From Ralstonia pickettii (GTDB lineage Bacteria > Pseudomonadota > Gammaproteobacteria > Burkholderiales > Burkholderiaceae), in the NCBI GenBank assembly GCA_050987995.1, contig CP158804.1:1030412-1094411 (forward strand): DNA of 64,000 nt. The letters run 5' to 3'. Shown here in pieces: positions 26,858 to 33,862 of this stretch. Below the pieces are notes generated by a model, which ran no database searches, was not told the origin of the DNA, and saw only the letters and a list, made by a program, of their open reading frames with translations. The position numbers and the translations under genes were made by a program. Each line of letters starts with the position of its first letter. The first letter of the stretch is position 1.

Positions 26858-28087
<1,230 letters not shown>

Positions 28088-28163
28088 GGTCGCCCCTGGC
28101 TCTGTCGTCGCGGACTGCACGTTAGACGGCCAGTGCCAGCCAAGGATTCCCCTGCAGGAGGCC

Positions 28164-29129
28164 TTATCCCAGCAAGAAGCTGGCAAAAGCGCCCAGGTCG
28201 ACATTGCCCCCGGATACGATGATGCCCACGCGCTTGCCCTTCACATCGAGCTTGCCCTGCAGCACCGCGGCGGCGGCCAGGCAGCCGGTAGGCTCGACTA
28301 CGATCTTCATGCGGCCGGCAAAGAACTTCATGGTTTCGACCAGCTCCGCATCCGACACGGTGACGATATCCGTCACCAGTTCGCGGATCACGGCAAAGGT
28401 GTGGTTGCCCAGGAACGGCGTCTGCGCGCCATCGGCGATGGTGCGCGGGGTGTCGATGCGCACGATTTCGCCGCTGCGCAGGCTTTGCTGGCCGTCGTTA
28501 CCGGCCTCCGGCTCCACGCCGTAGACCGCGCAGCCAGGCGCCATCGCCTTCGCCGCGACCGCACAGCCCGACAGCAGCCCGCCGCCGCCCAGGCATACCA
28601 CCAGCATGTCGAGCGGACCGGTTTCCTCCAGCAATTCCTTGGCCGCCGTGCCCTGCCCGGCCATCACATGCGGATGGTCGTACGGCGGGATCAGCGTCAT
28701 GCCGCGCTCTGCGGCAATGCTCCGCCCCAGCGCCTCGCGGTCATCCTTGTAGCGGTCGAACAGTACCACCTCGGCACCATAGCCGCGCGTGGCCTCGATC
28801 TTGATCGCGGGGGCGTCCTGCGGCATCACGATCACGGCCTGCACGCCCAGCAGCCGCGCCGACAGCGCAATCGCCTGCGCATGGTTGCCCGAGGAGAACG
28901 CCAGCACACCGCCCGCCTTCTGCTGCGGTGTGAACTGGGCGATGGCGTTGTAGGCGCCGCGGAACTTGAAGGCGCCGATGCGCTGGAAGTTCTCGCACTT
29001 GAAGAAGAGTTGCGCCCCGGTGGCGGCGTCGGCGGTCGAGGAAGTCAGCACCGGGGTGCGGTGCGCGGCGTCGCGGATGCGGTCGTGGGCGGCGGCTACG
29101 TCGTTGAAGGTGATGGGCAAGGTGGTCAT
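28164..29129 (-). CDS. PLP-dependent threonine/serine dehydratase family protein (fold type II)
   Basis: From the ATG at 29129 (MTTLPITFNDVAAAHDRI…). PLP-lysine motif …CENFQRIGAFKFRGA…, then GNHAQAIA, and the glycine loop …VCLGGGGLLSG…. Confidence 0.8.
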   Translation of the reverse strand: MTTLPITFNDVAAAHDRIRDAAHRTPVLTSSTADAATGAQLFFKCENFQRIGAFKFRGAYNAIAQFTPQQKAGGVLAFSSGNHAQAIALSARLLGVQAVIVMPQDAPAIKIEATRGYGAEVVLFDRYKDDREALGRSIAAERGMTLIPPYDHPHVMAGQGTAAKELLEETGPLDMLVVCLGGGGLLSGCAVAAKAMAPGCAVYGVEPEAGNDGQQSLRSGEIVRIDTPRTIADGAQTPFLGNHTFAVIRELVTDIVTVSDAELVETMKFFAGRMKIVVEPTGCLAAAAVLQGKLDVKGKRVGIIVSGGNVDLGAFASFLLG

Positions 29130-29167
29130 GGCAGCATGGATGGCGGTTGACGCGGGGACGGGCCAGT

Positions 29168-30778
<1,611 letters not shown>

Positions 30779-30915
30779 GTCTATCTGTCTGGATAAATGA
30801 CGCGATAATCGTATCAGAATTTCGTGCGGCCGGGCGACGTACCCATGCACGATTCAGACATAACTTCCTTTTATTTCAAGCACTTAAGCGCTGTAGCCAG
30901 CTATGCGTCACCTGC

Positions 30916-30931
30916 TGGCACGCTCTTCGCA
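30916..30931 (+). promoter_or_regulatory. Sigma54 (-24/-12) promoter divergent from rtcR
   Basis: TGGCACGCTCTTCGCA has GG at 30917-30918 and GC at 30929-30930 (GG-N10-GC spacing), with one mismatch to TTGCA in the -12 element. Predicted TSS is about 30943. A possible IHF-like TTTCAAgcacTTA lies about 25 nt upstream. Confidence 0.55.
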
Positions 30932-31039
30932 ATATCCCTGCAGCCGGATGTCCCTCTGGCCCGCGAGCCAGGGTTCGAAACGCCCTGCTGGTGCGCCGCC
31001 GCCGAACCTGTGTTCGTCGCGACGGCGTATGCCGCCATG

Positions 31040-31205
31040 GACAGATGAAGGCGATTGGGGTGCGCGTGGTGTCTCGCCCGGGTTCGACTCCCGGGGCATC
31101 CCACACCGTTCGGTAGCTCATTGGGTAGAGCAGTCGGCTTCGGCCGACGTGTAGCGGGTTCGAATCCCGTTCGAACACTGTCCTGGTAAGACAGTTCTGT
31201 CGTGA
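31040..31205 (+). ncRNA. tRNA-like non-coding RNA (Y RNA-like / YrlA-type tRNA mimic) in the leader of the RtcR-controlled operon
   Basis: Core module 31107-31178:
- acceptor-like stem CGTTCGG/TCGAACA (6 of 7 pairs)
- D-arm GCTC-ATTGGGTA-GAGC
- the anticodon arm is replaced by a 6-bp hairpin capped with a UUCG tetraloop (GTCGGC-TTCG-GCCGAC)
- 5-nt variable loop
- canonical T-arm GCGGG-TTCGAAT-CCCGT
There is no anticodon and no encoded CCA. Further T-arm-like hairpins carrying GGTTCGA lie at 30968-30987 and 31077-31095. Confidence 0.5.
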
Positions 31206-31427
31206 AAGCAGTACCCGCCGGTGCGGGCAACGGTGGCGAAACGCCGATGCGTGGAGGCACCGAAGCCCGCCGCGCGCCGGGCCGGTCACGGTGCCGCGCG
31301 AACGGCCGGGAAGCCAGAGGGGGCCTTGCAGCAGTCCGCAACCCAACGGCGAACCCGCCCGTCCGCGTCGCGCCGCGATCCGCCCGGCGCGCGTACCCGG
31401 CGGTCATCGAAGAAGAAGGAAAAGAAA

Positions 31428-32573
31428 ATGTGGAAGCGTTATCTGGTCAAAAAGAATGAGCGTGCGCTGCTGCGGCGCGAGGGCGATTTCGTCAAGGTGC
31501 TGGAGCCGGGCGTATTCAAGGCGCTCGACCCTTTCAACCGCCTCGCGGTGGAAGCAGTGCGCATGGACGGCCCGCTGTCCGATACGGCGCTGGGCGACTA
31601 CCTGCGCAAGTCCGAGCCCGACGTGATGTCGCGTCACTTCGTGCAGATGGACCTTGGCGATGACGAAGCGGGCCTGCGTTACGAGGACAGCACGCTCGTG
31701 GAACTGCTGCCGCCCGGCACGCGCCGGCTGTACTGGCGTGGCGTGATCGATCATCGGCTGGAGCGGATCAGCCTGACCGAGGCATCGGCACTGCCGCCGG
31801 CCCTGGTGCTGCGCATGACGCAGCCGACGCTGCGCGCGCGGCCGGTGCAAGGGCTGGCCGGCGTGCTGCTGGCGCAGGTGCCGGCGTACAACGTCGGGGT
31901 GCTCAAGATCGACGGCAAGGTGGACCGCCTCCTCGAACCGGGCGTAATCGGTTTCTGGCGTTACAGCCGCGATGTGTCCGTGGAACTGGTCGACCTGCGC
32001 GTGCAGGCCGTGGAAGTGGCGGGACAGGAGATCCTGACCCGCGACAAGGTCGCGCTGCGGCTGAACCTGGCCGCGACGTGGTGCTACGTGGACGTGCTGC
32101 GCGCATGGTCCACGCTGCAAAAGCCCGCGGAACACCTGTACCGGGAGTTGCAATTCGCGCTGCGCGCGGCAGTAGGCACGCGCACGCTCGATGAACTGCT
32201 CGAGGACAAGCAGGTGATCGATACCACGGTCACGGCGCAGGTGCAAGCGCGGTTGCAAGGGACGGGGCTCGAACTGCGCAGCGTCGGTGTGAAGGACATC
32301 GTGCTGCCGGGAGACATGAAGACGATCCTGGCGCAGGTGGTGGAGGCCGATAAGGCCGCCCAGGCCAACGTGATCCGTCGCCGGGAAGAAACCGCCGCCA
32401 CCCGTTCGCTGCTGAACACGGCCAAGGTGATGGAAGAAAACCCGACCGCGCTGCGGCTGAAGGAGCTCGAGACGCTCGAACGGATCGCGGAGCGGATCGA
32501 CCGGATCTCGGTATTCGGCGGTCTCGACCAGGTGCTGAACGGGCTGGTCAGCATCAAGCCCGGCGCAACCTAG
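31428..32573 (+). CDS. SPFH (band-7 / slipin) domain protein
   Basis: From the ATG at 31428 (MWKRYLVKKNERALLRREGDFVKVLEPG…), with an AGGA RBS. Band-7 core …VALRLNLAATW…GLELRSVGVKDIVLP…, followed by a coiled-coil C-terminus. Confidence 0.75.
   Translation: MWKRYLVKKNERALLRREGDFVKVLEPGVFKALDPFNRLAVEAVRMDGPLSDTALGDYLRKSEPDVMSRHFVQMDLGDDEAGLRYEDSTLVELLPPGTRRLYWRGVIDHRLERISLTEASALPPALVLRMTQPTLRARPVQGLAGVLLAQVPAYNVGVLKIDGKVDRLLEPGVIGFWRYSRDVSVELVDLRVQAVEVAGQEILTRDKVALRLNLAATWCYVDVLRAWSTLQKPAEHLYRELQFALRAAVGTRTLDELLEDKQVIDTTVTAQVQARLQGTGLELRSVGVKDIVLPGDMKTILAQVVEADKAAQANVIRRREETAATRSLLNTAKVMEENPTALRLKELETLERIAERIDRISVFGGLDQVLNGLVSIKPGAT

Positions 32574-32632: not shown

Positions 32633-33862
<1,230 letters not shown>

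Follow-up and report, generated by a model that had tools for sequence, protein, structure and literature searches.

Tandem tRNA-like modules in a conserved, structured leader of SPFH-rtcB operons

Some bacteria encode the RNA ligase RtcB beside a Band-7 protein and a predicted RNA, the b7a-tRNA (short for 'band 7-associated tRNA'), as recounted in the passage of a preprint by Wang et al. (bioRxiv 10.1101/312249, 2018) that draws on the work of Burroughs and Aravind (2016). That passage portrays the predicted b7a-tRNA as a single RNA that strongly resembles authentic tRNA and that has not been experimentally validated (10.1101/312249). Our full-text searches returned only this preprint as mentioning it. 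Another tRNA mimic is the Y RNA called YrlA, in which the elements are arranged in the order V-T-AS-D and the tRNA-like domains are substrates of RNase P and of modification (PMC4201824). In Salmonella, YrlA is a stable RNA (PMC4201824), and its D and T arms have been proposed by Wang et al. as the binding site of a factor (10.1101/312249). Here we describe the leader of an operon for an SPFH/Band-7 protein and RtcB in Ralstonia pickettii, found in a stretch of 64,000 nucleotides (nt) of contig CP158804.1 that we call the window and to which all coordinates refer, and we compare this leader with its relatives and with the systems above.

Two tRNA-like folds, which we name module 1 and module 2 in the direction of transcription, lie in tandem in this leader. 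Both are under selection, both are linked to SPFH and rtcB genes, and neither has a conserved anticodon. We favour, with moderate confidence, the reading that the region is a leader of about 485 nt controlled by RtcR and sigma-54, that module 2 is an RNA of the b7a-tRNA type, that module 1 is a reduced copy, and that these RNAs are partners of the SPFH protein and RtcB. The comparison covers 80 loci encoding SPFH orthologues, one genome per species, and the sampled taxa include Burkholderia, Paraburkholderia, Pseudomonas, Rhodocyclales, Gallionellaceae, Methylococcaceae, Deinococcus, Chamaesiphon and alphaproteobacteria. An RNA leader region lies upstream of the SPFH gene in all 80 genomes, always on the coding strand. 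At least 60 of the orthologous loci, ranging from Burkholderia to Pseudomonas, Rhodocyclales, Gallionellaceae and Methylococcaceae, share both the promoter and the leader. The features found in the window are collected in Table 1.

Module 2 is the only RNA gene called by standard tools in the window. It folds into a complete cloverleaf that has U8, A14, G18G19 and a T-loop, and its anticodon arm consists of a stem of six base pairs capped by a UUCG tetraloop, for which ARAGORN returns the label 'tRNA-???' with an anticodon of two nucleotides. For both modules, a covariance model was built from 19 diverse sequences and 49 loci were then aligned to it. Support for all four arms of module 2 comes from 47 distinct sequences, among which its D and T stems hardly vary. 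A score above the Rfam threshold for tRNA, together with the Arg, Met and Ile anticodons that ARAGORN reports in some relatives, could be taken to mean that the modules are tRNA genes that function in decoding, such as a pair co-transcribed with the operon. We give this explanation a minimal probability, because the window carries a tetraloop in place of an anticodon loop, no CCA follows module 2, module 1 is without D and anticodon arms, and the anticodons change among close relatives. Burkholderia species have tetraloops in this position, whereas relatives whose loop has 7 nt present varied triplets (CAU, GAU, AAU, ACG, CCG and others).

Module 1, which lies 4 nt upstream of module 2, resembles the top half of a tRNA. 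Its acceptor-like stem and T-arm form a coaxial stack of 7 + 6 base pairs in the window and of 6 + 6 base pairs in most relatives. The covariance model was used for this module because plain MAFFT alignment misplaced gaps near the variable insert. In the 49-locus alignment, whose fitting to the model structure inflates the percentages of paired positions, pairing reaches 98.2% in the acceptor, where five of six pairs show compensatory changes, and 97.5% in the T stem, where four of six do. The two stems together thus show compensatory changes at nine of 12 pairs, and none of 500 shuffles reaches the observed values; when the partners are slid by one to three columns, pairing falls to 32-52%. 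The exchanges can also be seen in unaligned sequence, both in the acceptor (GGGCGC/GCGCCC, UAGUGC/GCACUG, GGGCAA/UUGCCC and AUGGCG/CGCCAU) and in the T stem (CCGGG/CCCGG, CCAGG/CCUGG, AUUGG/CCAAU and GCAGG/CCUGC). The T-loop signature GGTTC.A..CC is invariant across the alignments, and a UGG or AGG inside the insert is present in all.

A separate feature of the module 1 acceptor was noted in 8 of the 47 distinct sequences, where a G-U pair occupies the third pair of the aligned six-base-pair stem (columns 3:49 of alignment A7) and an A occupies the discriminator position. This pair recalls the G3:U70 pair of tRNA-Ala and hence an AlaRS-like identity. It is not conserved, the Burkholderia cepacia group included, and in the window the extra pair G31057-C31102 shifts the G-U (in the region of 31059/31099) to the fourth pair.

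An initial annotation of the window, made from its letters alone, had proposed three T-loop-like elements within about 210 nt, forming a tandem of tRNA-arm mimics. We scanned both strands of the window for T-arm geometry, defined as a 5-base-pair stem, a 7-nt TTCRANN loop and a G:C closing pair, with an expectation derived from 200 first-order Markov simulations. Canonical T-arms were found only at 31078 (31078-31094) and 31154 (31154-31170), against about 0.35 expected per window, and these two are situated 76 nt apart on the same strand of one intergenic leader. The proposal therefore stands for two tRNA-like modules in tandem: all three sequences exist, but only two are true T-arms and the third, at 30968-30987, is a look-alike. 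The element at 31077-31095 (CCCGGG-TTCGACT-CCCGGG) is a canonical T-arm, in which a stem of 5-6 base pairs carries a 7-nt TTCRANN loop with a closing G:C pair, and it passed the check for conservation and compensatory change across relatives that the annotation had suggested. Of the 80 SPFH leaders, 60 have exactly two canonical T-arms, at a spacing of 68-77 nt; 10 have three, seven have one and three have none.

The heptamer GGTTCGA is not rare in itself, since it occurs 11 times in the window against 6.8 expected, a count that 8 of 100 shuffles reach. In a GC-rich genome the T-loop heptamer alone is thus a poor guide, and one of the three 'T-loops' was coincidental. From the abundance of the heptamer, the chance T-loop likeness at 30968-30987 and the truncation of module 1, it might be argued that the arrangement is the non-functional decay of a former tRNA array, or a set of chance GC-rich GGTTCGA hairpins. 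We find this scarcely credible. Compensatory pairing extends across beta- and gammaproteobacteria, the T-loop of module 1 does not vary, and the only two canonical T-arms in 128 kb (both strands) are adjacent to each other. For 31077-31095 and for the stem of 30968-30987, decay or chance is refuted.

The size of the upstream module differs between lineages. This tRNA-like RNA is short in Burkholderiales, Rhodocyclales, Gallionellaceae and Methylococcaceae. In Pseudomonas, the slot of module 1, which lies between the 5′ domain and the core module, is filled by a tRNA-like RNA of full length. ARAGORN and Rfam recognized two such full-length RNAs side by side in Pseudomonas, Deinococcus, the cyanobacterial Chamaesiphon and the alphaproteobacterial Paracoccaceae. 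The suggestion that this leader preserves the remains of a tRNA array is borne out to that extent, but the word 'decayed' misleads, since purifying selection clearly acts on the truncated module. The predicted tRNA-like RNA is normally accompanied by a second T-arm module, which is either full-length or an acceptor/T-arm minihelix.

Two further variants extend this range. The loci of Deinococcus (L063) and Chamaesiphon (L067-L077) carry two full-length tRNA-like RNAs and, downstream of them, a third canonical T-arm hairpin, GAUGG-UUCGAKU-CCAUY; T-arm modules therefore differ in number and order from phylum to phylum. The locus of Pseudomonas paraeruginosa (L037) has a plain hairpin at about 2120-2148, so that the series runs as a gradient from a full tRNA-like RNA through a minihelix to a simple stem.

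Upstream of the modules lies a conserved 5′ domain formed by three helices. The first 110 nt or so of the leader from 31 loci were aligned with MAFFT, without fitting to a structure, and a consensus was derived with RNAalifold. Slid-partner controls for P2 and P3 are 32-46% paired. The closing helix P1 forms in every sequence, with different bases. Two strings, CYGGUGC (30988-94) and GYAUGCCGCC (31027-36), are invariant and are kept even in the AT-rich Methylococcaceae. No Rfam family matched the domain in the window leader or in three diverse orthologous loci.

The hairpin CCAGG...CCCTG at 30968-30987, which had been presented as a T-loop on a GC-rich stem, is the distal part of helix P2 in this domain. 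Its stem passes the covariation check and the hairpin is real: in alignment A2, columns 34:50 are A-U 14 times and G-C 13 times, and columns 35:49 are G-C 18 times, A-U nine times and U-A four times. The register supported by covariation runs from C30969-G30987 to G30973-C30983 and U30974-G30982. This register leaves a 7-nt loop, UCGAAAC, or a 9-nt loop without the U-G pair, and neither is the G53-[UUCRA]-NN-C61 of a T-arm. Among orthologues the loop ranges from 5 to 9 nt. It reads TTCGAAACG in the window; most Burkholderia have TTCACAAAG, Pseudomonas has CTCCAG and Methylococcaceae have TTAGCA, and GTGAAA and other versions also occur. The geometry scan and this variability rule out a T-arm, and the GGTTCGA at this position is coincidental because the loop varies in both length and sequence. 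A further hairpin drawn by the initial annotation, CTGGC/GCCAG at 30956-30971, was rejected as well. The sequence is present, but the pairing competes with P2, and its 69.7% paired positions in the 31 orthologues are equalled in 457 of 500 shuffles of the partners.

The leader also has structure 3′ of the modules. The stems of the hairpin that follows module 2 directly, which was judged by eye, differ among orthologues (UGUCC/GGACA, UGCCC/GGGCA and CGGUC/GACCG, with a U-G pair where the first strand is CGGUCU). In the conserved 3′ domain beyond it, RNAalifold predicts 30 pairs from 24 orthologues, 23 of them with compensatory changes, and the outer helix is replaced by GGCUGGU/ACCAGCC in Methylococcaceae. 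This domain, for which the window leader and three diverse orthologous loci gave no Rfam match, is possibly a translational control element or a part of a larger RNA. Its opening motif, GCAGUACC, is duplicated in tandem (GCAGTACCGCAGTACCC) just 3′ of module 2 in three loci (L033, L040 and L064). Conservation with covariation extends over the entire leader of about 485 nt, from Burkholderia to Methylococcaceae. Both modules sit between two more conserved structured domains, neither of which has an Rfam family, under an RtcR/sigma-54 promoter.

The intergenic gap that holds these elements measures 649 nt and separates the divergent rtcR gene on the minus strand from the SPFH/Band-7 gene on the plus strand. 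The order is rtcR, sigma-54 promoter, leader, Band_7 and RtcB, and the SPFH gene starts 250 nt downstream of module 2. In nearly all orthologous loci from proteobacteria, the same TGGCAC-N5-TCGC element precedes the leader at an equal distance. Because of the sigma-54-type promoter in the window, transcription probably starts at about 30942-30943, the first base of helix P1, which would give a leader of about 485 nt up to the SPFH start codon. A scan of 30700-31500 found no sigma-70 promoter and no intrinsic terminator. A second rtcB paralogue, 77% identical to that of the operon, lies downstream of rtcR on the minus strand (26858-28204). It comes after an open reading frame (ORF) at 28164-29336, and no tRNA-like RNA accompanies this paralogue.

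Table 1. Features of the rtcR-SPFH intergenic region and the genes on either side, in window coordinates
Feature	Position	Strand	Basis or remark
rtcR, sigma-54 enhancer-binding activator with CARF-like RtcR domain and AAA+	29168-30778	-	Pfam RtcR E = 9.7e-82; Sigma54_activat E = 2.2e-50
Sigma-54-type promoter TGGCACgctctTCGCA (-24/-12)	30916-30931	+	Pattern match
Conserved 5′ domain, three-helix junction	~30943-31052	+	MAFFT of 31 orthologues and RNAalifold
Helix P1	30943-30953 / 31039-31052	+	Cognate duplexes average -11.9 kcal/mol, non-cognate -7.2
Helix P2	30963-30974 / 30982-30992	+	95.2% paired; 6/10 pairs compensatory
Distal part of P2 (first hairpin of the initial annotation)	30968-30987	+	Covarying stem; fails T-arm geometry scan
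Helix P3	30993-31028	+	Two parts, 94% and 83% paired; 9/11 pairs compensatory
Module 1, truncated tRNA-like 'top half'	31057-31102	+	Covariance-model alignment of 49 loci
Module 1 acceptor-like stem GGGGUGC/GCAUCCC	31057-31063 / 31096-31102	+	Covariance-model alignment
Module 1 insert, 13 nt with conserved UGG, in place of D and anticodon arms	31064-31076	+	
Module 1 T-arm, loop UUCGACU	31077-31082 / 31090-31095 (stem); 31083-31089 (loop)	+	Second hairpin of the initial annotation
Spacer ACAC between modules, A31103 at discriminator position	31103-31106	+	0-5 nt in orthologues
Module 2, core tRNA-like RNA, band-7-associated tRNA type	31107-31178	+	Rfam tRNA 45.2 bits, threshold 29
Hairpin directly 3′ of module 2, CUGUC-CUGGUAA-GACAG	31178-31194	+	Judged by eye, not formally counted
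Conserved 3′ leader domain, ~200 nt, opening with GCAGUACCC, nested long-range helices	31208-31404	+	RNAalifold, 24 orthologues
Outer helix of 3′ domain, CCGCCGG/CCGGCGG	31215-31221 / 31397-31403	+	Ends ~13 nt before SPFH ribosome-binding site
SPFH/Band-7 gene, operon gene 1	31428-32573	+	Pfam Band_7 E = 2.5e-27
rtcB, RNA 3′-phosphate/5′-OH ligase	32633-33862	+	Pfam RtcB E = 9.8e-130

The architecture of the modules suggests how such a leader might work. The acceptor/T-arm stack and its elbow would offer what RNase P, TruB/TrmA and the CCA-adding enzyme recognize, and because RNase P recognizes this stack, cuts would be expected at about 31056/57 and about 31106/07. Three products would result from these cuts, namely the 5′ domain, a minihelix RNA (about 46-50 nt) and a tRNA-like RNA (about 72 nt). 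The released RNAs would then partner the SPFH scaffold and the RtcB ligase, as a Y RNA partners Ro60, and could serve as scaffold, guide or decoy. In eight diverse loci (L004, L010, L043, L049, L055, L058, L059 and L065), N-CCA stands directly 3′ of the module 1 acceptor, which would fit a released tRNA-like 3′ end, and RNase P cleavage of module 2 in those loci would leave a minihelix that ends in CCA. The near-invariant D and T arms of module 2, which are shared with YrlA, may likewise fit the binding of a common factor.

The main rival to RNA partners acting in trans is a leader that acts purely in cis, in which the modules would be processing or stability signals for RNase P or RNase E, or a sensor that couples SPFH translation to RNA damage, and no RNA would function in trans. 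tRNA-like structures do serve as RNase P processing signals, as in MALAT1/mascRNA. The modules reside inside a long 5′ untranslated region, in every case ahead of the SPFH gene and on its coding strand, and the outer helix of the 3′ domain closes shortly before the ribosome-binding site (Table 1). Yet the near invariance of the module 2 D and T stems, and their occurrence in YrlA, suggest a specific factor, and the analogous YrlA of Salmonella is a stable RNA; a dual role is compatible with both points. We therefore consider a role in cis only to be unlikely, and we retain the view that the modules give rise to partners of SPFH and RtcB.

Several points weigh against this view, in addition to the inflated pairing percentages mentioned above. 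A single-sequence fold of 30943-31200 is not significantly more stable than shuffled sequences (z = -1.44), a comparison that is uninformative for such a GC-rich region. A hairpin within the module 1 insert is only weakly suggested by 74.5% pairing, and the conserved UGG/AGG is the sole pointer to the idea that the insert may mimic the D-loop G18G19 that docks on the T-loop. In a few lineages (L037, L052 and L064) the module 1 T-loop has been lost and a plain hairpin takes the place of the module, so this loop can be dispensed with. The spacer in the window reads ACAC rather than CCA. Finally, both RNase P processing and the partnership with SPFH and RtcB are steps that we infer from sequence.

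A broader possibility, which we offer tentatively and hold to be conceivable rather than probable, is that the b7a-tRNA is one piece of a much larger, hitherto undescribed structured RNA, or of a set of processed RNAs, that would assemble with an SPFH cage and RtcB into an RNA-repair ribonucleoprotein, to which module 1 would in some lineages contribute a minihelix ending in CCA. For the SPFH/Band-7-RtcB repair systems, an RNA partner has so far been predicted and never characterized. The present analysis supplies concrete targets, namely two predicted RNase P sites, defined RNA species and bases to mutate.

Among known systems, YrlA (RF02553), which is bound by Ro60/Rsr, invites comparison. 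It is likewise a tRNA mimic associated with rtcB operons that has no decoding function and is likely recognized by tRNA-processing enzymes. Its D-arm (UAGCUCA..GGUAGAGC) and T-arm (GCGGGUUCGA..CCCGC) are essentially those of module 2, which explains the weak resemblance of the leader to the YrlA model. This near identity of arms points to a binding factor that may be shared by Ro60-type and SPFH-type RtcB operons. However, the YrlA fold is a circular permutation in which the acceptor is closed and the ends leave through the anticodon stem into the Ro-binding helix, whereas the leader described here has ordinary tRNA topology in tandem.

The initial annotation had proposed, as one possibility, a YrlA/YrlB-like multi-module Y RNA, and such an RNA can be drawn here. 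The T-arm at 31077-95, an AS hairpin and the D-arm at 31114-31 would form the permuted tRNA-like domain, and the flanks would form the Ro60-binding stem. The succession of T-arm, about 19 nt and D-arm agrees with the YrlA order (PMC4201824), the arm sequences are shared, and the Rfam model aligns to 31077-31131. The score of that alignment, however, is 16.9 bits against a gathering score of 69, and the best relative reaches 42 bits. In the 49-locus alignment the AS hairpin that would link the T arm to the D arm reaches 43.7% pairing and shows no compensatory change, and its would-be nucleotides pair instead in two separate acceptor stems (98% for module 1 and 92% for module 2). The Ro-binding motif GNCGAAN0-1G is absent from 30943-31427. 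A Ro60/TROVE (rsr) gene would be expected within about 4 kb of a YrlA gene and on its strand, but a Pfam scan of eight ORFs from 24.4 to 37.6 kb found no TROVE domain in any of them. The eight encode FliP, Bac_export_1, RtcB, RtcR, Band_7, RtcB, MCP and a beta-lactamase-family protein. A YrlA-type Y RNA is thus very improbable at this locus.

The same model gives full-length matches below threshold across the junction of the tandem tRNA-like RNAs in two relatives, at 2116-2220 of L044 (42 bits, Pseudomonas) and at 2124-2226 of L049 (27 bits), which can also be counted in favour of a YrlA-type RNA. The permuted topology of YrlA equals the 3′ half of one tRNA followed by the 5′ half of the next, which hints that YrlA could derive from a tandem of tRNA-like RNAs.

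Other comparisons concern the two modules separately. Module 1 shares with the mascRNA-menRNA or MEN-beta tRNA-like small RNAs (RF01684), and with tRNA minihelices, a reduced fold dominated by the acceptor/T-arm stack. The mascRNA model aligns end to end with 31059-31100 at 22.7 bits (E = 0.05 in a search of 801 nt), far below its gathering score of 42.5. That family is eukaryotic and keeps a D-like arm and a short anticodon-like arm, so the likeness of module 1 to it is one of design and not of homology. Other Rfam hits at permissive E-values (CRISPR-DR28, HOTTIP and miRNA-like palindromes in L044) were set aside as chance matches or unrelated repeats, and in the window leader and the three diverse orthologous loci only tRNA scores above threshold. 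With canonical tRNA (RF00005), module 2 has in common the cloverleaf, its conserved tertiary-contact positions and T-loop, and a score above threshold, but it differs in its UUCG tetraloop and its lack of CCA. Module 1, without D and anticodon arms, falls below the threshold of the tRNA model.

The predicted b7a-tRNA is a known system whose gene context this locus shares. Module 2 lies adjacent to a Band-7 gene, has an RtcB neighbourhood with a divergent rtcR, and resembles tRNA; it therefore fits the description of b7a-tRNA that is available from a secondary source. Rfam has no family for this RNA. Module 1 shares the resemblance to tRNA in part, through its acceptor and T-arm. Set against that secondary description of the 2016 prediction, the leader differs in having a second, truncated acceptor/T-arm module and a three-helix 5′ domain upstream. 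Module 1 and the flanking domains appear to add a new form, or an extended one, to a known, though as yet unvalidated, kind of RNA.

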